Both the position numbers and the translations under genes were made by a program. 64,000 bases of DNA, from the NCBI GenBank assembly GCA_020720765.1, contig DYOB01000003.1:3170-67169 (forward strand). The letters run 5' to 3'. This document shows positions 6,445 through 51,680 of this stretch, piece by piece. The stretch's first letter is position 1. Every line of letters begins with the position of its first letter. Below the pieces are notes generated by a model. It did not search any database, was not told where the DNA came from, and saw nothing but the letters and a program-made list of their open reading frames with translations. This DNA is from Borreliella garinii. GTDB taxonomy: Bacteria; Spirochaetota; Spirochaetia; JABEVK01.

Positions 6445-6896
6445 TACCTAGGCTCCTTGCCAACTATGGCTGATGCATGGATTTGCCTAAAAATCAGGTA
6501 CACAACCAAAGAAGAAAAGAGGGCGCTTAAAAATAAATACCCGCCCCATTTAACAAGGATTTCAGACTGGGGGGGGAAGTCAAAGAACTTAGGCAGTAAA
6601 ATAATACTAAATTTTATAAAATTCAGGACAACGTTCACAGCGCCAAGGGGATATAATTCCTTAATTTCCCTATAAAATATGTACATAGGTAGAAAACTTG
6701 CATAGGCAGAAAATGCCAGCACGAAAAGCGCTGAGGTAAATGGGTCCGGCATCAAGTCCCTCATCACAAGGAAAACAAAAAAAAGCAGAGATAAAAGAGA
6801 AAGTGCTTCCAGGGCAATAAGAAAAGGTTTTGGCTGAAATTGCATGTTTTCATTGTATGAGGGGTATCCAGTAGGGTCAAGGCGTTGACAAAGCAT
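6444..6896 (-). CDS. Hypothetical integral membrane protein
   Basis: 150 aa with about four hydrophobic helices. Translationally coupled to the downstream ParA-like gene. Confidence 0.4.
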   Translation of the reverse strand: MLCQRLDPTGYPSYNENMQFQPKPFLIALEALSLLSLLFFVFLVMRDLMPDPFTSALFVLAFSAYASFLPMYIFYREIKELYPLGAVNVVLNFIKFSIILLPKFFDFPPQSEILVKWGGYLFLSALFSSLVVYLIFRQIHASAIVGKEPR

Positions 6897-28497: not shown

Positions 28498-28920
28498 TCA
28501 ATCCTGATTCAACAAACTTTTTAACTTGTCTAAACTCTCTTTGAGATCCTGTGAGGGTTTAAAACTAACGGCCTCTTTTTCGGCTTCAGGAAGCCTTGGT
28601 TCCTGCGGGGGTTTTTGCAAATCCGCGACAAGTCTCAACCTTATTCCCTTAATCTGTAGTTGGGGGGATTCCCTTTGTATCCTTTCCAAAATCCCGTCTT
28701 TTTGCATAAGAAATTGATTCATCCAAGCAGGATGATCGACGTCCACTAGGAGATTTCCACCCTGTATTTCCCTTGCCCGTGTATGATAACTTAAATTTTC
28801 TCCGACAAACTGGGGCCAGCCTTTGAGTAACGGCACCCAACCTTCAAATGCGGCTTTTTTTCCGGGAAACAGCTGATCTAAAAACGCCCCTAACCGTTTG
28901 GGTTCGTCCGTCTGTCCCAT
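28498..28920 (-). CDS. DUF721 (DciA-like) protein
   Basis: 140 aa encoded immediately after recF in the dnaA–dnaN–recF cluster, the conserved position of DUF721/DciA. The annotated start overlaps the recF 3' end, so the true start may be internal. Confidence 0.55.
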   Translation of the reverse strand: MGQTDEPKRLGAFLDQLFPGKKAAFEGWVPLLKGWPQFVGENLSYHTRAREIQGGNLLVDVDHPAWMNQFLMQKDGILERIQRESPQLQIKGIRLRLVADLQKPPQEPRLPEAEKEAVSFKPSQDLKESLDKLKSLLNQD

Positions 28921-29984
28921 TTTCCCTCCTGGATATCGTAAATTGTATAATCTTCCCGCGTAAATTGATATTCGTTCTGCCCGGGCAAAAAAGTGTAAAA
29001 GGCCTGTTCATAGTCCGGCAGGGCATCAGAAAACCGTGTACGCTTCTCCGTATCCAATTCCAAAAGAACATCGTCCAGGAGAAAAATCGATCTTCTTTTT
29101 TTGGCTTGTATCACCATTTCAGCCTGTACGGCTTTTAGACAGAGCGACGCCAACCTAATTTGTCCTGTCGATGCTGTTTCTTGAAAGGAATCTTCTCCCC
29201 AATCCAGATACCACCTGTCACGGTGAGGACCGTTTCTTGTATAACCCAGGTCTCTGTCTCTTTCACGGTTTTGTCGGTAACCTGTTAAAATAGCCTCCAG
29301 TTCAAGACTTTTAAAATCCGAGTGATACCGTAAAGCCACGCGTTTTTCTATCTGACTGACATAAAAAAAAACTTCTTCAAAACGCGGAGAAAAAATTTTT
29401 TGTACATCGGCACGTACTTTACAAAGTATTAAAGCCTCTTGGGCTAATTGAAATTCATAGACTTCGAGGAGTGCGTTTGATACACCCTGCCTTAGTGAAA
29501 AGTTTCTGTCTCGTAAAATTTTTTGGTACCTTCGCCAGGATTCTAAATAGTCTTCGTTCATCATAATCAGCGTTTGATCGAAAAAGCGACGTCTTTCTTC
29601 CGCGGGTCCGCTTACCAGTAAAAAATCTTCGTGGCTGAAAATTACCACCGGCTGCAAGGCAAGAAGCTGCCTGCGTTCTTTTATGGGATTTTCATCGATA
29701 AAAAAGCTTTTGTTTCCTTCTTGAAACTGAGTTTTTACCTTTATCGTTTGTGATGGCTCTTTGACTATCCCTCTGACACCCCACTCGTTATTTCCACTTT
29801 TAGCTAAGAGTAAATCTTTTCGTACCCTGAAACTGCTACCTATCAATAAAACATAAAGGGCTTCCAAGAGGTTTGTTTTACCTTGTCCGTTTTTGCCAAT
29901 AAAAAAAACCTGGCGCGACGAGGTATTGATTTCCCCGTCGTCCAGGTTTCTAAAATGATAAAACCCAGCCCAACCAAGCGACAT
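28890..29984 (-). CDS. recF: DNA replication and repair protein RecF
   Basis: 364 aa. Walker A GKNGQGKTNLLEAL and the SMC-like signature region. Confidence 0.9.
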   Translation of the reverse strand: MSLGWAGFYHFRNLDDGEINTSSRQVFFIGKNGQGKTNLLEALYVLLIGSSFRVRKDLLLAKSGNNEWGVRGIVKEPSQTIKVKTQFQEGNKSFFIDENPIKERRQLLALQPVVIFSHEDFLLVSGPAEERRRFFDQTLIMMNEDYLESWRRYQKILRDRNFSLRQGVSNALLEVYEFQLAQEALILCKVRADVQKIFSPRFEEVFFYVSQIEKRVALRYHSDFKSLELEAILTGYRQNRERDRDLGYTRNGPHRDRWYLDWGEDSFQETASTGQIRLASLCLKAVQAEMVIQAKKRRSIFLLDDVLLELDTEKRTRFSDALPDYEQAFYTFLPGQNEYQFTREDYTIYDIQEGKWDRRTNPNG

Positions 29985-31087
29985 TATTCAGACATCTGCA
30001 TCGGCATGATGATGTGAAAATAGTTCTTCTCCGGGTCTGTTTTGAGCGTTACCGCTCTGCGGGGGTCTGTAAACTGCATGATGATCGTATTTTCAGTACA
30101 AACGCGCACTGGATCCTGGATGTAATGGTAATTTAAGGCAATCACGGTTTGAGGCCCCTCATACTCGACTGGAATTTCTTCACGTGCCAATCCCAACTCG
30201 CTTTCATCGGAGGCTATTAGGGCATTGTTATCTGCCAGTGTGAGAAAAACCCTTTGAGCCTTTTGGTCGGCCATAAGACTGACGCGCCTTATTGCGTCCA
30301 TTAGGTCTTCTTTTTTAATTTTGGCTGTATAAGCCTGGCTTTCAGGAATTACACGAAGATAGTTGGGGAATTGTCCGTCGATGAAATTCGAGTAGATTTT
30401 TTGATTATCAAAACTGAACACCAGGCTTTTTTCACCAATTCCAATATTTAGAACACCCTGGCCGCTGGCAAGTTTTCTTATGAGGTTTAAGGGTTTAGTT
30501 GGTATGATGGCTGTGAAATCCCTACTGATGTCCATATCAATTTTAGCTATGCTCAGCCTTCTTCCATCGGTAGCGACCAAACGGAAGGTTCCTTCCTTGT
30601 ATTCGAAGAGTACACCCGTCATAAAATATCTTGCATCGTCGTCGCTTACCGAAAAAATCGTCTGGTTGATCATTTCCAAAATTTCTTTTTGGCCTATCGA
30701 AAAAGCGAGTCCTTCGGTTTCCCACTGTACCCAGGGATAATTTTCGGACTTCATTGTTTTCAGCTGGTAATTGATGGATTTTTTTTCAGGCCTGATATGA
30801 AACCTGCTATCGTCTGTCATGTTAAAAAGAACATCCCCGTCGGGGAGGTTTTTCAAAGAGCCTAAGAATTTTTCACTATTGACTGTCGTAATTCCTTCAG
30901 ACTCCACATTCACTGGCAGGATGGATTCAAAGGCTGTCTTTGTATCCGTTGCACGAATGATAAGTTTGCCTTCTTTCACTTCCATCATAACATTGCTTAA
31001 AATGGAAATGGTTGATCTGTTTGAAACGACTTCCTGAGCTATCAGGATTTCCTTCATCAGCAGATTTTTATCACAATAAAACCTCAT
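29984..31087 (-). CDS. dnaN: DNA polymerase III beta sliding clamp
   Basis: 367 aa with three-domain beta-clamp architecture, immediately downstream of dnaA. Confidence 0.9.
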   Translation of the reverse strand: MRFYCDKNLLMKEILIAQEVVSNRSTISILSNVMMEVKEGKLIIRATDTKTAFESILPVNVESEGITTVNSEKFLGSLKNLPDGDVLFNMTDDSRFHIRPEKKSINYQLKTMKSENYPWVQWETEGLAFSIGQKEILEMINQTIFSVSDDDARYFMTGVLFEYKEGTFRLVATDGRRLSIAKIDMDISRDFTAIIPTKPLNLIRKLASGQGVLNIGIGEKSLVFSFDNQKIYSNFIDGQFPNYLRVIPESQAYTAKIKKEDLMDAIRRVSLMADQKAQRVFLTLADNNALIASDESELGLAREEIPVEYEGPQTVIALNYHYIQDPVRVCTENTIIMQFTDPRRAVTLKTDPEKNYFHIIMPMQMSE

Positions 31088-34969: not shown

Positions 34970-37432
34970 ATGGCCGAGCTAACAGGACGGATTATTCCCG
35001 TTGAAATCGAAGACGAAGTAAAAAGAAGCTATTTAAACTATGCGATGAGCGTTATTGTTTCGAGGGCCTTGCCCGACGTGAGGGACGGTTTGAAGCCAGT
35101 CCACCGCCGTATTCTCTTCGCCATGGAAGAGATGGGGCTCAGGCACGAGCGTCCTTTTAAAAAGTGCGGACGTATAGTCGGTGATGTGCTGGGTAAATAC
35201 CACCCACACGGCGACCAGAGTATCTATGACGCGCTTGTCCGACTAGCCCAGGATTTCAGCCTTCGCTACCCAGTAGTAAGAGGGCAGGGTAACTTTGGAA
35301 GTGTGGACGGCGATCCTCCAGCGGCGATGCGGTATACCGAGGCAAAACTCGCAAAAATTTCCGATGAACTTATCCGGGATATTGACAAAGAAACCGTAGA
35401 TTTTGGTCCCAATTACGACGATAGTCTCAAGGAGCCCTTGGTTTTGCCAGCGGCGTTCCCATTTTTGCTTGTCAATGGAGCAAGTGGGATCGCGGTCGGA
35501 ATGGCTACCAATATTCCACCGCACAACCTGGGCGAGGTTTGCCGGGCCATTGTTGCAACCGTCGACAACCCGGAAATTACCAGTGATGAACTCGTTCAAT
35601 ACGTAACAGGCCCGGATTTTCCCACGGGTGGCGTTATCCAAAACCGTGGTGGGTACCACCTTGCGGCCCGCACAGGGCGCGGAGCGGTTACAGTACGAAG
35701 CAAGTACGAAATAGAAGAGAGTTCTACGGGAAAGCAGAGCCTGATCATCACAGAAATCCCTTACATGGTGAATAAGGCGCTAACGATAGCCCATATAGCA
35801 GAACTCGTGAAAGATAAAAGGATTGATGGGATTTCCGACCTTAGGGACGAGAGCGACCGTGATGGTATGAGGATAGTCATTGAAATTAAAAAGGGTTTTG
35901 ACCATATGGTTGTTGTCAACAGCCTTTTCGCACATACAAATCTGCGTTTAAATTTTAATATTAACGCGCTTGCCCTGGTCGGCGGTATGCCCAAAGTTCT
36001 CAGTCTAAAAGAAATGATCGTGGCTTTTATTGCCCACCGAAGGGAAGTGATCATCCGAAGGACTATTTACGACCTGAGAAAAGCCGAAGAACGCGCCCAT
36101 ATTCTACAGGGATTAAAAATAGCCCTCGACAATATCGACGAGGTCATCCGAACCATCAAGGAGTCTGCCAACGTTGCTGAGGCTAAGGTCCGCCTTGAGA
36201 CGCGCTTTTCTCTCAGCGAGATTCAGAGCCAGGCTATTCTTGATATGCGCCTTCAGAAACTTACTTCACTTGAAACGCAAAAAATATTAGAAGAATTGGC
36301 CGAAGTCGAGGCTAAAATCGCATTTTTTAAGGACTTGCTGGCACATGAAGAAAAAATCTACGGCGTAATAAAGGAAGAAACCAAAAAGATCGAGGAAGAT
36401 TTCGGTGATGAAAGAAGGACCGAAATCACCGACGAAGAAGCAACGAATGCAGATATGGAAGAACTGATTCAAAAAGAAGACGTTGTTGTGACGATTTCAA
36501 GCGGAGGTTTTCTCAAGCGTGTACCAGTAACGGAGTATAGGGCCCAGGGGAGGGGGGGGAAGGGGGTCTTCACCGCAAACCTGAAAGAAGAGGATTTCCT
36601 TGAGAATATCTTCGTTTGCAACACCCACCACTTTATCCTTTTTATCACCGATCACGGCAGGTCTCAGAGCATTAAAACCTACCAACTTCCAGTGGGCTCT
36701 AGAACATCAAAAGGAAAACATATCAGAAGCCTGCTCGACCTTCAGGAAGATGAAAAAATGACCACAGTAGTCAGCCTGGATTCGTTTAAATCCGACAGGT
36801 TCATTGTCTTAGCGGCTAAAAGCGGAAAGGTTATGAGGATGCCGACTTCTGTCTTTGCATATTCAAAGGTAAAGGGCATAGCAACGGTAAACCTTGAGCC
36901 AGATGATCATTTGGTTTCCGCCTACCTAACAAGCGGCTCGGATGATATTATTCTTATCACCAAAAATGGTCAGGCTTTGAAATTCCCTGAAACTGATATT
37001 CGAAGTACAAACAGAAACGTTCAGGGCGTGAAGGGCATTACTTTTAAGGCTAAAAACGATGAACTCATCGCTGCCATCCCCGTTCGTTCCAACGAGCAGC
37101 TTCTGCTGGTTTCAGAATTTGGTTTAGGCAAACGCTTGTCTGCGAGTGAGATCAACCCACACGGGCGTGGAACAGCGGGAATGATCTGTTATAAGCCGGA
37201 TGAAAAAAGCGGCCGTTTAGCCGGTGCAATTCCAGTAAGTCCGGACTATGACGTGATGTGTATCACAGAACAGGGAAAAAGCATTAAGAGCGCCACCGAC
37301 GCTATTTCCGAACAGGGGCGTTCTGCCAAGGGTGTTAGGCTTATTACGCTTGAACCCGGAGACAGGGTTTCGGGCATTGCAAAATCTGTTCAGGAAGAAA
37401 AAGCCATTCAGGGTGAACTTTATACCGAGTAA
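34970..37432 (+). CDS. gyrA: DNA gyrase subunit A
   Basis: 820 aa. Active-site region [10 protein letters not shown] and C-terminal beta-pinwheel repeats. Confidence 0.95.
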
Positions 37433-40270: not shown

Positions 40271-40310
40271 CAGAATCGTAAGGTCTCAATATCATTCAGT
40301 GGGTCTCCCT

Positions 40311-40395
40311 GGAGAGGTGGCAGAGTGGTCGATTGCGGCAGTCTTGAAAACTGTTGGGCCGCGAGGTCCCGTGGGTTCGAATCCCACCTTCTCCG
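40311..40395 (+). tRNA. tRNA-Ser (anticodon TGA), class II long variable arm
   Basis: Hand-folded. Acceptor GGAGAGG/CCTTCTCC, anticodon loop CT-TGA-AA, 19-nt variable arm, T-loop TTCGAAT. Confidence 0.7.
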
Positions 40396-40405
40396 AAGAC
40401 AAATA

Positions 40406-40493
40406 GGAGCGGTGCCAGAGTGGCCGAATGGGGCGCCCTGCTAAGGCGTTGTACCCCTCAAGGGTACCGAGGGTTCGAATCCCTCCTGCTCCG
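40406..40493 (+). tRNA. tRNA-Ser (anticodon GCT), class II
   Basis: Acceptor GGAGCGG, anticodon loop CT-GCT-AA, long variable arm, T-loop TTCGAAT. Confidence 0.7.
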
Positions 40494-40497
40494 TATT

Positions 40498-40571
40498 GTG
40501 CCCATAGCTCAGTTGGATAGAGCGTCAGATTGCGGATCTGAAGGTCGGAGGTTCGAATCCTCTTGGGCATA
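40498..40571 (+). tRNA. tRNA-Arg (anticodon read as GCG)
   Basis: Acceptor GTGCCCA/TGGGCAT, D-arm GCTCAGTTGGATAGAGC, anticodon loop TT-GCG-GA, 5-nt variable region, T-loop TTCGAAT. Confidence 0.6.
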
Positions 40572-40586
40572 TTGCCGTAAGAGCAA

Positions 40587-40671
40587 GGAGAGATGGCCGA
40601 GTGGCTTAAGGCGCACGCTTGGAAAGCGTGTATACGGAAACGTATCAGGGGTTCGAATCCCCTTCTCTCCG
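40587..40671 (+). tRNA. tRNA-Ser (anticodon GGA), class II
   Basis: Acceptor GGAGAGA, anticodon loop TT-GGA-AA, long variable arm, T-loop TTCGAAT. Confidence 0.7.
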
Positions 40672-40681
40672 TCCCTTTAGT

Positions 40682-40782
40682 GACTGTCGGGCCCTACGCT
40701 ATCGGCTGACACCCAACCCCGCCAGGATCGGAAGGTAGCAACGGTAAGTGCTCGGCGATGTGCCGTAATCGGTTTGACAGGA
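40682..40782 (+). ncRNA. ffs: Probable small SRP RNA (4.5S/ffs)
   Basis: Domain-IV-like core CCGCCAGGATC-GGAA-GGTAGCAACGG at 40718..40746 resembles E. coli CCAGGUCC-GGAA-GGAAGCAGCC (GNRA tetraloop plus symmetric loop). The termini pair (40684 CTGTCGGGCC with 40771 GGTTTGACAG). ffs–dnaX–ybaB–recR synteny is known. Confidence 0.5.
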
Positions 40783-40797: not shown

Positions 40798-41979
40798 ATG
40801 AGCTATGAAGTAACCGCGACAAGACGACGCCCTAAAACATTCCTAGAAATGGCCGGCCAAGATTTCGTCGTAACGACGCTGAAAAAATCCATTGAAACAC
40901 AGAGAATTGCCCATGCCTACCTTTTTTCCGGCCCCCGGGGAGTGGGAAAAACAAGTTCGGCAAGAATTCTAGCTAAATGCCTTAACTGCGAAAACGGCCC
41001 TACTGCAGAACCCTGCGGGGTTTGTTCTTCTTGCGTTTCCATTGCAAAAGGTTCGAGTATCGATGTTATCGAAATCGACGGAGCTTCCAACACCTCGGTC
41101 AACGACGTTCGGGTCATCCGTGACGAGGTTTTGTTCGCCCCCAGCTCTTCAAGGTATAAAATTTATATCATCGACGAAGTCCACATGCTTTCGAATTCCG
41201 CCTTTAATGCTTTATTAAAAACTATTGAAGAACCCCCTCCCTACATTGTTTTTATTTTTGCCACGACCGAACTCCACAAGGTTCCTGCAACGATTCGAAG
41301 CCGGTGCCAACAGTTCCCTTTCCGGCTTATCCATACTGACGATATCAAGAAAAACCTTGAACTCGCGGCGGCAGAGCTCGGGTTGAAAGCGGATGATGAA
41401 GCACTGTTCTGGATGTCAAAGGAAGCTACCGGGTCCATGAGGGACGCGTACACGTTATTTGACCAGGTGGCGGCCTTCTCCGATGGACATATCACCCAAA
41501 CGAAAATCCAAGAAAAACTCGGACTTGTCGGGGTTGATGTCGTTACGGAGCTCGTTTCAAGCCTCTTAACCGGAAACCACCACGAAGTTCTTGAGCTTAT
41601 CGATAAAATATTGGTTTCCGGAGTCAGTGTATCACAGATCACCCACGACCTTACTGATTTTTTCAGGGGCCTTCTGCTCTACAGAGCCGGAATCCGCCGT
41701 GAAAGTCTCTTAGGTTATAAGCCGGAACGGCTTGCGGAGACTGGTCTGGAAACCCTTACATTGGCACAAGTTGAAAAAGCAGAAGAATCCCTTCTGGAAC
41801 TCAATAGAAACCTAAGGTACAGCATCAATCCCCGTGCAGAATTGGAATTGACCTTGATAAGGTTTTGTTCCTTGCCCAACTTTTTGGGTACTAGCGAACT
41901 CTACCAGCAAATCCTTCTGTTAAAGGAAGAGTTGGTAGGCGTCGCTTTACAGGCAAAAAAAAAACTACAGAACGGATAA
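40798..41979 (+). CDS. dnaX: DNA polymerase III subunit gamma/tau, in-frame (short) product
   Basis: MSYEVTATRRRPKTFLEMAGQDF; AAA+ Walker A GPRGVGKTS; zinc-module cysteines CGVCSSC. Ends ...AKKKLQNG* immediately after an A10 tract (41955..41964). The listed start at 40774 would overlap the SRP RNA and is rejected. Confidence 0.85.
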   Translation: MSYEVTATRRRPKTFLEMAGQDFVVTTLKKSIETQRIAHAYLFSGPRGVGKTSSARILAKCLNCENGPTAEPCGVCSSCVSIAKGSSIDVIEIDGASNTSVNDVRVIRDEVLFAPSSSRYKIYIIDEVHMLSNSAFNALLKTIEEPPPYIVFIFATTELHKVPATIRSRCQQFPFRLIHTDDIKKNLELAAAELGLKADDEALFWMSKEATGSMRDAYTLFDQVAAFSDGHITQTKIQEKLGLVGVDVVTELVSSLLTGNHHEVLELIDKILVSGVSVSQITHDLTDFFRGLLLYRAGIRRESLLGYKPERLAETGLETLTLAQVEKAEESLLELNRNLRYSINPRAELELTLIRFCSLPNFLGTSELYQQILLLKEELVGVALQAKKKLQNG

Positions 41980-42302
41980 TTTCACACCCTGAAGGCCTGC
42001 CTGAAAAATGGCGGACGGAAATTTTAAAAAATACTGAAACACCCAAAGGCATTGTTTTAGGCCTAGAGGGAATTACTGCTTGGGTCGTAAACGGTGAGGA
42101 GCTTTCTTTAAGTTTAAAAAATTCGCTATATTTAGAGGGGTTGCAAACAAATTTTGACTGGTTACTGGAAAGGATTAGGAATTTTGTGCCAGGGGTGGGA
42201 AAAATTATTCTGATTGTTGAAGAAAATGAAGAAAAACCGCTTGAGGATTGGGAAAATCAAAAGGCGGTTTGGTTGGAAATCTTTCAGGGGAGGATTGGGT
42301 GA
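41962..42302 (+). CDS. dnaX: DnaX C-terminal (tau-like) domain encoded in the -1 frame with no start codon; reachable only by frameshift or slippage at the A10 tract
   Basis: The -1 frame is open from 41895 to the TGA at 42300 with no ATG, GTG or TTG. It encodes ...PEKWRTEILKNTETPKGIVLGLEGITAWVVNGEELSLSLKNSLYLEGLQTNFDWLLERIRNFVPGVGKIILIVEE..., resembling DnaX C-terminal domains. Confidence 0.5.
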
Positions 42303-42610
42303 ATCCATTTGAACTTATAAAAAATTTCGGCAAGATGAGGAGCCAATTAGATGAATGGGGTCAGAAACAAAAAGAGATTGAAGCCGAGGGCATATCTGCA
42401 GGAGGCCTGGTAAAAGTTGTTGCGGGTGGAGATCTCACAGTGAGAAAGATTTTTATCGATGATTCACTGTTTCTTGAAGATAAACGCGGACTATTGGTCC
42501 CGCTGCTCGTCTCTGCTGTGAATATAGCCCTAAAGGACGTCCAGGAGAAAAGCAAGCAGGCGCTCTCGGGTATGACGGGCATGGACCTTTCGGGGACGGG
42601 AATTGGGTAA
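42299..42610 (+). CDS. ybaB: Nucleoid-associated protein YbaB/EbfC
   Basis: GTG start, about 103 aa; NPFELIKNFGKMRSQLDEWGQKQKEIEAEGISAGGLVKVVAGGDL is typical of YbaB. Between dnaX and recR. Confidence 0.8.
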   Translation: MNPFELIKNFGKMRSQLDEWGQKQKEIEAEGISAGGLVKVVAGGDLTVRKIFIDDSLFLEDKRGLLVPLLVSAVNIALKDVQEKSKQALSGMTGMDLSGTGIG

Positions 42611-49308: not shown

Positions 49309-51306
49309 TTAATCAAAGAAATCGTCTTCGACCTCAAAAAATTTGGGGTCGATTTCAAAGAATTTCTCCACATCGACCATGAAAAAATCGTTTTCAACGA
49401 AGTTGTCAAAAAATTGGTCGCTGTTTGAGAAAAACTCGTCGTTCTTAAAGGCGTCTGCCGAGCTATTAAAGCGTTCTTCTTGGCTTTGCTGGAATTGTCC
49501 AAAATAAGAGTCATCCGCATACCGGGTATTTCTTCTTCTTACAGTGTTCGTCGAGAACCCCATCACATAATCCACCGAAGGGCTCATCACTTGGCCGGCG
49601 ACGGCGACAATGGAATAATAGTTGGGGTTGGTGTTTGCGGTTCTGTGGATAAACCTGGGTTCTTGTGTTTCACCCAGGGGTTCATAACGGCTTGTCCTGA
49701 TGTTCAGAAGTGAAACAATGTATTTCTGAGCGTTGGGAGTGGGGCGCCACGTGATTTCTACTCGGTCTGTGAATTGTCCCTGGGACGCCCTGACCCCGCG
49801 AACAGCGCGCAGGCTCGTAACAGAGACAGCCGGAACAGGGTTCTTTGGGGGGGGCGTCGTGGGTGTTGTGGTTGTTGGTGTCGTCGGTGTGGTAGGAGTA
49901 GTCGGCGTCGTTGTAACTGGGGGGGGGGGGATAACCGGAGGAGGAAGGGTAATTGTTATAGAGATACTCGCACTCGAAGCGCTTTCCTCTTCTCCTTTCG
50001 CGGCAGAAACGACGTACCAATAACTGGCCGAGGCCGAAGGAAGGGTCGAATCCTGGAAACCGACGTCACGGCTTGTACCGATAAGACGGAATTTTTCGGC
50101 GGTATTATCCCACCTGTAGACGTTATATCTTTCCGCGTTGGCCACGGCGTCCCACAGGATTTTAACCAGGGTGCCCTCAGTAAGGGCCTGGATATTTTGA
50201 GGAATACCGAGAACTTGGGGTACTTGGAGAAAACCGTTTGCTATAGGGCTGAAATCGCTATCACCGCCCACACCGAAACTTTTTACGGTGTAATAGTACA
50301 TTTTTCCCTGTTGGACCTGTCTATCGATATAAACATTCCCTTGGGTTCGTGCTATTTCAGAAAAGGGACCGGTATTGGCTTCTCCCCTAAAAACTATGTA
50401 ACCTTCCGAGTTTTGAACTTCGCCCCAGGAAATCTGGATTCTATCGGCGAAGGCGCCGAGACTTGCCTGGCTAGTTGAAGGCGGTAAGCTCTTATTGGGG
50501 CGGCTGATAACGCGCCCTTTCATGACCACGGCGGTATGGGTGAGTTCGCCAAAAGTACCGTAAGCCACCCATCCGTAGCCGTTTTCACCCCAACGGTTCG
50601 ACCAGGAGTTGATGATAAGAAAGGCTCCCTTGCTGTCATCGTAGCCAATGGCACTCATAGCGTGGCCGCCAAGGTACGCGCCGCTGGTGCCGTTGTAAAC
50701 ACCGCCGCGGTAGTTCGTAAAATTCTCATAGGTCCGCATGCCGAAAATGATCACGTTTCCGGCTGCCAAGACGGCTTTGAGCGCCTGTGTGTTTTTGGGA
50801 TCCAGGGATTCATACGAATCAGTTGTATAATTTGAGGCCTCGTTCCTTGCGGCCTGCCCCGGCTGGGCGCGGAAATCAAGGGTATAAGGCATGGTTTGAA
50901 GGGTTGCAGCACCGGTATTTTTTATTAGGTCAACAGCCCTGACAATAGAAGATCCCTGGTCCTGGCCTCCGTTGATTTGGTTGTAGATAAAGGACGGGGA
51001 GAAAATTTTATCCTGGCTGTTTACTCCCCAGCCCCTAGCCGCATTTTCCTGGTGGGTTTTAGCGGCATAAGCCACTGCCCAACCTACGCAGCTATTGATT
51101 CTATCCTGGTAACCCGGTGCAGGTAAAAGGTTCCTATGGTCCACCAGGCGGGGAAGCTGGCCGGAACTTGGGCTTGCACTCGCACCGGCTATGGAATTTT
51201 GCAGGACAACCGGAACAGGTTGGGACCCCAACGATTTCTGGGGTGCTTGTGCAAAAACACTTCCAACCATAACACCCATAATGACGAGGTTGAATAATTT
51301 TTTCAT
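49309..51306 (-). CDS. Secreted papain-family (C1) cysteine peptidase with three Fn3 domains, Pro/Thr linker and acidic FF-repeat C-terminal tail
   Basis: Signal peptide. Catalytic Cys QDRINSCVGWAVAYA, His GGHAMSAIGYDD, Asn NSWSNRWGENGYGW; no long propeptide. Three Fn3-like modules. Linker PPPVIPPPPVTTTPTTPTTPTTPTTTTPTTPPPKNP. Tail with six acid-flanked FF dipeptides. Confidence 0.7.
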   Translation of the reverse strand: MKKLFNLVIMGVMVGSVFAQAPQKSLGSQPVPVVLQNSIAGASASPSSGQLPRLVDHRNLLPAPGYQDRINSCVGWAVAYAAKTHQENAARGWGVNSQDKIFSPSFIYNQINGGQDQGSSIVRAVDLIKNTGAATLQTMPYTLDFRAQPGQAARNEASNYTTDSYESLDPKNTQALKAVLAAGNVIIFGMRTYENFTNYRGGVYNGTSGAYLGGHAMSAIGYDDSKGAFLIINSWSNRWGENGYGWVAYGTFGELTHTAVVMKGRVISRPNKSLPPSTSQASLGAFADRIQISWGEVQNSEGYIVFRGEANTGPFSEIARTQGNVYIDRQVQQGKMYYYTVKSFGVGGDSDFSPIANGFLQVPQVLGIPQNIQALTEGTLVKILWDAVANAERYNVYRWDNTAEKFRLIGTSRDVGFQDSTLPSASASYWYVVSAAKGEEESASSASISITITLPPPVIPPPPVTTTPTTPTTPTTPTTTTPTTPPPKNPVPAVSVTSLRAVRGVRASQGQFTDRVEITWRPTPNAQKYIVSLLNIRTSRYEPLGETQEPRFIHRTANTNPNYYSIVAVAGQVMSPSVDYVMGFSTNTVRRRNTRYADDSYFGQFQQSQEERFNSSADAFKNDEFFSNSDQFFDNFVENDFFMVDVEKFFEIDPKFFEVEDDFFD
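49919..49930. repeat. Homopolymeric G12 tract (C12 on the coding strand, encoding PPPP) inside the C1 peptidase gene. A G8 tract at 49843..49850 lies in the same linker
   Basis: Read directly: ...gtaactggggggggggggataacc... It is the longest homopolymer in the window. Confidence 0.9.
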
Positions 51307-51680
51307 CGAATCTCTCCTTGATTTGTTAAAGGCGCTTCTAATTCCGCCAATTCAATTTTACCATCAATATCGTGAAAATACGTGGCGCGTAGGGATTTTT
51401 CACCCTCCTGGTCGGAGTAGGTCATCGTTAGACGGACCTGGAAACCCGCCACGACCTGAGATTCCACCTTCTGGACGGTTTTGAGAGTCCAGGAAGGGTG
51501 AGATTCTCTGACAAGGGTTTTTAAAAGCTCCAAATCCGAAAGGGCCGTGTCCCAAGTTAAAGGCTGTTCTGTCCAGCCTCCAACAAGGGTGTTTCCAGAA
51601 TCTGAAGGGGGGGCTACTGCGTCGTTTCCAACACAGCCAAAGAGTACAAAGACGTAAATGATATAAAGGGGGAACTTCAT
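51303..51680 (-). CDS. Cystatin-like lipoprotein, putative inhibitor of the downstream C1 peptidase
   Basis: 125 aa with a lipoprotein-type signal (VLFGC). N-terminal Gly-rich segment (LVGGW) and an exact canonical cystatin/stefin hairpin motif QVVAG (ESQVVAGFQVRL). Its stop overlaps the peptidase start by 4 nt. Confidence 0.5.
   Translation of the reverse strand: MKFPLYIIYVFVLFGCVGNDAVAPPSDSGNTLVGGWTEQPLTWDTALSDLELLKTLVRESHPSWTLKTVQKVESQVVAGFQVRLTMTYSDQEGEKSLRATYFHDIDGKIELAELEAPLTNQGEIR

Follow-up and report, generated by a model that had tools for sequence, protein, structure and literature searches.

Organization of the dnaX locus

How could a full-length tau subunit be obtained from a dnaX gene whose reading frame closes shortly after a run of ten adenines? 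This question is raised by a 64,000-nucleotide stretch of spirochaete DNA deposited as Borreliella garinii (GenBank assembly GCA_020720765.1, contig DYOB01000003.1, positions 3,170 to 67,169 of the forward strand), the whole of which is referred to below as the window. On the comparative sequence evidence, its dnaX is a genuinely split, evolutionarily maintained gene consisting of two open reading frames (ORFs). The 0-frame ORF is located on the + strand at 40798..41979, from an ATG at 40798 to a TAA at 41977..41979, and its translation gives a gamma-like product of 393 amino acids with clamp-loader domains I to III. Pfam matches in this product were DNA_pol3_delta2 (residues 21-176), DNAX_ATPase_lid (183-230) and DNA_pol3_gamma3 (232-371); the stop thus comes soon after domain III, the match to which ends at residue 371 of 393. 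The 393-amino-acid product is identical to the database protein P0001. Its C-terminus reads ...LQAKKKLQNG, and the 0 frame up to the TAA is given as ...GVALQAKKKLQNG.

The A10 tract AAAAAAAAAA was located at 41955..41964 (+ strand), where the 0 frame reads GCA AAA AAA AAA CTA, and the TAA that ends the gamma-like product lies four sense codons 3' of it. An in-frame slippery heptamer of the X_XXY_YYZ type, A_AAA_AAA, is contained in the tract as GC[A AAA AAA] AAA. The −1 frame is open from 41895 through a TGA at 42300..42302, and the part of it at 41964..42302 on the + strand (TTERIIS...EIFQGRIG, 112 amino acids and the stop), a putative tau C-terminal domain, would be reached only after a shift. 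Insertion of one A gives a fused protein of 501 amino acids with 112 residues beyond the KKK, and the junction peptide expected of such a fused tau is ...LQAKKKTTERIISHPEGLPEK. The +1 frame is closed by a TGA at 41990..41992 (+ strand). An initial sequence-only reading of the locus had described the same 0-frame end, the same A10 tract with its heptamer, the open −1 frame from 41895 to 42302 and an extension of about 112 amino acids, and all of these stand. Its estimate for the long product was about 505 amino acids, against the 501 obtained here. One of its details is wrong: the −1 frame, said to contain no ATG, GTG or TTG, has a TTG at 42141, GTG codons at 42186 and 42195, and a TTG at 42273.

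In a survey of the 64-kb window for homopolymers (A/T runs of at least 8 and G/C runs of at least 7), 23 long runs were found. The A10 tract was the longest A/T run and the only one located at a frame break; the remaining 22 homopolymers were all well within long intact open frames. By a rough estimate, roughly 0.2 A10 tracts are expected by chance anywhere in 64 kb at 46% G+C, and the tract is therefore not rare when taken alone. Its significance comes from its conservation in orthologues and not from its mere presence.

Conservation of the split gene in spirochaete relatives

The DNA of nine further spirochaete lineages was read besides that of the window. In all ten lineages, which derive from different samples and assemblers, A9 or A10 was found at the homologous site, with a 0-frame stop 1-5 codons further on. 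A9 tracts occur in the lineages of L083-L085 (GTA AAA AAA AAC TGA) and L089 (GGG AAA AAA AAA CCC TGA). A10 tracts occur in those of L086-L088 (GAA AAA AAA AAC TGA), L090 (CAA AAA AAA AAC GAA TCC TAG), L091-L092 (GAA AAA AAA AAC TAG), L093 (GAT AAA AAA AAA ACT ... TAG), L094 (GCA AAA AAA AAA CTC TGA), L095 (CCA AAA AAA AAA GCC TAG) and L096 (GAA AAA AAA AAT TCC TGA). Depending on the lineage, the first A of the tract is in codon position 1, 2 or 3, and its length stays at 9-10. The contig of L096 ends just past the stop and was left out of the downstream-frame count; wherever the sequence could be followed beyond the stop (9/9 lineages), the C-terminus is located in the −1 frame, which runs for 97-242 codons. 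These results indicate that both the position and the direction of the frameshift are conserved, since ten lineages share the tract and stop and all nine that could be followed downstream need a −1 shift.

The same picture was obtained at the protein level. The nearest homologues, with 63-75% identity, are likewise short (387-398 amino acids), and of the 29 short proteins that rank among the 120 best homologues, 27 have a C-terminus formed by a lysine run (...KKN, ...KKKP, ...EKKNS, ...DKKKTLNP and the like). All cluster members that were read, including those of the 28-member P0018 cluster, end at the same site, and the longer ones differ by N-terminal over-extension alone. Among the members ending at the split site is WP_083963658.1 (392 amino acids) of the cultured species Spirochaeta cellobiosiphila, and the L090 protein is present on 15 contigs, three of which exceed 1 Mb. 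When the N-terminal 375 residues were arranged in a rough neighbour-joining tree, split forms fell into three all-split clades of 13, 12 and 2 members, corresponding by parsimony to three state changes. The comparison with orthologous dnaX genes pointed to by the sequence-only reading therefore shows that the nearest relatives share the split, and the layout in ten lineages supports the reversed logic that it had proposed, with a gamma-like protein made without any shift and the long tau made by a −1 shift or by slippage.

Contiguous forms of the gene are also present in the phylum. A scan of genome contigs with the fused protein gave, among the matches listed, mostly loci from non-spirochaete phyla together with eight spirochaete loci, all of which were contiguous; no A run of at least nine was present in the dnaX of L001-L008. 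The motif (I/V)F(R/K)G(E)(I/V), with which the −1 frame ends, also terminates the contiguous DnaX proteins (535-721 amino acids) of Treponema, Borreliella and other spirochaetes.

Two side observations concern the variability of this region. In L091 (2683-2975; the P0023 lineage) the −1-frame extension is only 97 amino acids long and mostly of low complexity; it is without the folded middle domain and keeps the terminal ..EIFKGEV, and the strongest constraint may act on the extreme C-terminus. In many contiguous Treponema-type DnaX proteins a 'QKK(K)P/S' motif is kept within an otherwise variable linker. In L097 (approximately 2385-2400, residues ~395-401) this motif is coded by CAA AAG AAA, which resembles an A tract that has been interrupted, perhaps the remains of a slippery site. 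An in-frame tract of the Thermus type was suspected behind the conserved 'QKK' of the contiguous Treponema-type DnaX and is not supported, as L097 has CAA AAG AAA at this place and no A run of at least six.

The −1 frame encodes a DnaX-type C-terminal extension

In the sequence 3' of the tract in the window, L083, L086 and L089, only the −1 frame was both stop-free and aligning (scores 113-228, z 18-32), the other frames reaching z values of at most 6. Contiguous spirochaete DnaX proteins of 506-524 amino acids, such as that of Marispirochaeta aestuarii, cover 100% of the fused protein with 52-53% identity. Pairwise BLASTP of the window extension gave no match to the contiguous protein P0015 and a match to P0043 at E 0.003. 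Because the pairwise signal was weak, the homology of the extension had to be established by profile-profile comparison. With hhalign, the extensions of the split clades were aligned to the C-termini of contiguous spirochaete DnaX at a probability of 94.7% and E 5.6e-8; the alignment is colinear across 82 columns and reaches the terminal FRG. The resemblance of the −1-frame segment to DnaX C-termini, on which the sequence-only reading had staked its case, is borne out by these comparisons.

In an AlphaFold (AF2) model of the extension, the predicted local distance difference test (pLDDT) values were 80-91 over residues 1-79, the order of elements was alpha-alpha-beta-beta-alpha-alpha-beta, and the last 24 residues were disordered. 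The tau C-terminal domain has a KH-like fold shared with DnaA domain I, and the profile of the spirochaete C-termini matched DnaA domain I in the PDB at E 0.013, which is suggestive only. A Pfam search with the window extension gave no match, and Pfam PolC N-terminus II matched 2 of 18 spirochaete C-termini weakly. The link of the extension to the curated tau family is weak in several comparisons, which counts against the favoured reading. Pfam DnaX_C (PF20964) matched only weakly, below threshold (E 0.017), in 2 of the 18 spirochaete C-termini. The hhalign comparison with Firmicute DnaX C-termini, of which 5/10 match Pfam DnaX_C, reached 62% and E 7.5e-5, a weak link to the curated family. 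In addition, a Foldseek search of the extension model against the PDB gave no significant match, with DciA at rank 35. The kinship of the extension to characterised tau domains is thus only suggestive. Its position at the extreme C-terminus, its conservation and the analogy with E. coli tau (PMC4756838) lead us to infer that this C-terminal domain would bind the polymerase alpha subunit.

Transcriptional slippage and ribosomal frameshifting as possible routes to tau

Transcriptional slippage that adds one A is favoured, with moderate confidence and from the sequence pattern, as the most likely main route to tau, rather than ribosomal frameshifting. With faithful transcription of the A10 template and standard translation, the 393-amino-acid gamma-like subunit with domains I to III would be made, ending at 41977..41979. 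On part of the transcripts, RNA polymerase would slip at the T10 of the template and add one A, giving an A11 messenger RNA (mRNA). Standard translation of the A11 mRNA from 40798 would pass through the tract into the −1 frame and end at 42300..42302, and the product would be the 501-amino-acid tau, complete with its C-terminal domain and the conserved ..IF(R/Q)G.. motif at the end. A13 transcripts would give gamma as A10 transcripts do, and A9 or A12 transcripts would give further gamma-like protein that ends with ...KKNYRTDNFTP at the +1-frame stop, 41990..41992. A single gene would thus be the source of gamma and tau alike. The same holds in E. coli and Thermus, but there the two frames have the opposite roles.

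The length of the tract supports slippage. A run of at least nine A residues in the sense strand within dnaX was found in the window (A10) and in all split relatives (A9-A10), in any codon phase. A length held at 9-10 despite a varying codon phase fits a mechanism that depends on length and is independent of frame. Nine A residues form the experimentally shown slippage site of Thermus dnaX, and selection against runs is evident from length nine in many bacterial genomes (PMC1088944).

The strongest competing explanation is a programmed −1 ribosomal frameshift on A_AAA_AAA (A_AAA_AAC in relatives), which would produce tau, alone or together with slippage, while unshifted ribosomes produce gamma. 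Four points speak for it, the first three of which also count against slippage as the main route. The tract holds a heptamer in frame, either A_AAA_AAA or A_AAA_AAC, in the window and in all of its split relatives, and in L083, L086 and L091 the 0-frame stop directly follows the AAC, a context that can favour shifting. The direction at the DNA level is always −1, a criterion of Antonov et al. for frameshifting over slippage. Furthermore, the review of Atkins et al. mentions that some bacteria with a reversed dnaX apparently use frameshifting and that the gamma stop there comes immediately behind the shift site (PMC5009743).

However, seven A residues are enough for a frameshift, yet all ten lineages keep 9-10. 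The stimulators that E. coli dnaX needs, a stem-loop a few nucleotides 3' and a Shine-Dalgarno-like element about 10 nucleotides 5' of the shift site, were not found in conserved form. The 60 nucleotides 3' of the tract folded with z −0.38 in the window and with values between −2.6 and +0.75 in the relatives; the structures differed in place and shape, and no conserved hairpin was detected. No Shine-Dalgarno-like element was positionally conserved across the ten loci, and L086 was without any. A_AAA_AAA is also much less shift-prone than A_AAA_AAG in E. coli (PMC5009743), and the stop in the window is four codons off the tract. Ribosomal frameshifting is therefore regarded as a possible but rather unlikely source of tau in these organisms, and transcriptional slippage is retained as the favoured mechanism.

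Gene decay, sequencing error and phase variation as unlikely alternatives

A truly split or decaying gene would make a protein of gamma length only, and the downstream frame would either be dead sequence or encode a small protein with a start of its own. In relatives, gene callers do list this segment as an independent small ORF, and TTG and GTG codons are available from 42141 on. However, no stop interrupts the −1 frame in nine lineages, its protein sequence is conserved, and the conservation begins directly 3' of the tract, with an LPE.W motif. No start-type codon occurs within the first 82 −1-frame codons (41895..42140), and the conserved extension residues L15, P16 and W19 (LP..W) are located 60 codons 5' of the first possible start. 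Since these residues precede it, independent initiation could not make the conserved domain, and independent initiation of the downstream frame was ruled out for this reason. In addition, E. coli tau is the essential form and binds the polymerase whereas gamma does not bind it (PMC4756838; bioRxiv 10.1101/2022.11.10.516041), and a cell with gamma alone would therefore be unexpected. Decay or a true split is accordingly considered very improbable.

The sequence-only reading had given a homopolymer error as its alternative: a true A11 would restore a plain contiguous dnaX of 501 amino acids. Homopolymers are error-prone and the genome of the window is metagenome-assembled, its sequence being identical to contig CDCKUK010000048.1 of the NCBI metagenome-assembled genome GCA_974321985.1. 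The same A10 was nevertheless present in a separate Logan assembly of SRR1560848, and the same out-of-frame layout recurs in 10 lineages and dozens of assemblies, among them an isolate genome and contigs longer than 1 Mb. In every case a 0-frame stop follows closely on the tract, the window's other 22 long homopolymers are within intact frames, and the two-ORF form has been published from complete genomes of other phyla (PMC3711429). The error is rejected as highly implausible because of this comparative evidence, namely the recurrence of the layout in independent samples.

DNA-level phase variation, by which tract length would switch cells between a gamma-only state and a contiguous tau-making state, has hardly any likelihood either: long homopolymers are hypermutable and the window also has G8 and G12 runs, but no in-frame A11 or A8 variant was present among cluster members or assemblies, and dnaX is a core replication gene and an implausible target for an on/off switch. 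Two flank-anchored scans of Joint Genome Institute (JGI) metagenomes, for the window lineage and the L090 lineage, returned zero matching contigs and are hence uninformative on tract-length variants.

Comparison with known dnaX recoding systems

A reversed dnaX, in which the 0 frame is short and tau is made by recoding, was reported as a new organization by Antonov et al. (2013, NAR 41:6514, PMC3711429). The phyla concerned were Chlorobi, Bacteroidetes and Verrucomicrobia, and the organization is also mentioned by Atkins et al. 2016 (PMC5009743). Their set of 17 genes came from 12 genera, among which were Chlorobium, Flavobacterium, Cytophaga, Capnocytophaga and Coraliomargarita. The tract was A10 in nine of the genes, and for the A10 genes of these phyla slippage was proposed (PMC3711429). 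The spirochaete loci resemble this class in having two adjacent ORFs, a −1 relation at the DNA level, and a poly-A tract just before a nearby 0-frame stop. The tract has 7-10 residues (typically 10) in the published class and 10 in the window, and in both cases the short product comes from standard decoding and tau would require recoding. They differ in host lineage, in the short extension of the window (112 amino acids, with almost no linker), and in the nucleotide 3' of the tract, which is mostly C here and G in most of the published examples. The reversed layout was also found in an 80-species sample in L068 (Bacteroidetes bacterium 47-18; TTA AAA AAA AAA CAT TAA, A10, gamma of 372 and fused tau of 586 amino acids) and in L079 (Opitutaceae; GAA AAA AAA AAG GGC TGA, A10, gamma of 380 and fused tau of 511 amino acids), which matches the phyla of Antonov et al. 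2013. Spirochaetes are not named in the text of that paper or in the supplementary figure examined, and full-text literature searches returned no spirochaete report. Reversed dnaX is thus already published for other phyla, and its conservation in spirochaete clades is what is new.

The spirochaete gene was also compared with Thermus, E. coli and Shigella. Thermus thermophilus dnaX (Larsen et al. 2000, PNAS 97:1683, as recounted in PMC1088944) likewise has an A tract of at least nine after domain III, alternative frames that close shortly 3' of it, and a single gene with two products. The molecular event, a realignment of RNA polymerase, is probably the same. In contrast, the templated A9 mRNA of Thermus encodes tau and the slipped one gamma, whereas in the window the templated mRNA encodes gamma, with its stop at 393 amino acids, and tau would come from one extra A or two fewer. 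The −1 frameshift of E. coli dnaX shares with the window the gene, the position after domain III, an A-rich slippery heptamer, the −1 direction and the gamma/tau pair. It differs in that the frameshift makes gamma and the 0 frame tau, whereas the shifted product of the window is the long one. The 5' Shine-Dalgarno-like element and the 3' hairpin, conserved and required in E. coli, were not found in conserved form in the window and its relatives, and the heptamer is A_AAA_AAG there and ends in A or C here. In Shigella flexneri mxiE, as recounted in PMC1088944, one non-templated base similarly fuses two overlapping ORFs into a longer functional protein; that gene is unrelated, encodes a transcription activator and carries a T9 (U in the mRNA) rather than an A run.

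Probable overlap with ybaB and other features of the window

The start of ybaB is probably the GTG at 42299 and not the ATG at 42335 chosen by the gene caller, because translation from the former gives NPFELIKN, the conserved YbaB N-terminus. The gene would then be located at 42299..42610 on the + strand, behind the Shine-Dalgarno sequence GGGGAGGA at 42286-42293; Pfam YbaB_DNA_bd was matched by the gene as called. With this start, ybaB overlaps the tau stop by 4 nucleotides as GTGA, and a 4-nucleotide overlap of dnaX and ybaB is likewise found in the contiguous L097 and the split L090 and L093. As read from the sequence, the overlap with the tau stop would be a further sign that the −1 frame is translated, and GTGA behind GGGGAGGA suggests that translation of ybaB is coupled to that of the recoded tau frame. 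In the three closest split relatives, ybaB is absent between dnaX and recR (L083, 2664-3019; L086, 2664-3021; L089, 1253-1600) and the tau frame reaches almost to recR; the window and most other spirochaete loci have ybaB.

The order of genes on the + strand of the window is four transfer RNA genes (40310-40671), ffs, dnaX, ybaB and recR. The signal recognition particle RNA gene (ffs) is located directly 5' of dnaX at 40685..40782 on the + strand (Rfam RF00169, 51.6 bits).

The only other A/T run of at least nine in the window is an A9 on the + strand at 29363-29371, which is a T9 in the coding sense and sits in the middle of a 365-amino-acid open frame of the minus strand (28890-29987). If RNA polymerase slips at runs of at least nine, this gene would also give some frameshifted transcripts. 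Among the long G runs, G12 (49919-49930) and G8 (49847-49854) are 65 nucleotides apart within a 680-amino-acid minus-strand open frame (49309-51351), in which they are C runs encoding poly-proline in the coding sense; this could be a candidate phase-variable or slippage-prone site. Other G runs are located at 6569-6576 and 36552-36559.

Implications

The split has a direct consequence for annotation. Gene callers and RefSeq record only the product of 387-398 amino acids for these spirochaetes (for example, WP_083963658.1 of S. cellobiosiphila), and the tau C-terminus is called as an anonymous small ORF or missed. Because the C-terminus is mis-annotated, a presumably essential, polymerase-binding subunit is missing from the proteomes, and genome completeness estimates or pseudogene calls may be misled in the same way. 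S. cellobiosiphila is cultivable and would serve as a test organism for the predicted production of tau by slippage.

A broader scenario is advanced only speculatively, and we consider it improbable. In this scenario, the A tract of spirochaetes would have toggled repeatedly, by gain or loss of single A residues, between a tau-in-frame and a reversed state, independently of Chlorobi, Bacteroidetes and Verrucomicrobia, and tau in the reversed lineages would depend wholly on the infidelity of RNA polymerase. If this were true, the tau:gamma ratio and replisome assembly could follow conditions that alter slippage, such as ATP level, temperature and elongation factors, and replication would be regulated by the state of transcription instead of by a fixed tau:gamma ratio.

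The present analysis extends the reversed dnaX organization to a further phylum, in which it is found in at least three long-lived clades. This extension strengthens the case that a mixed supply of gamma and tau is under selection, and likewise the case that changing one base of a slippery tract can exchange one 'standard' product for the other.

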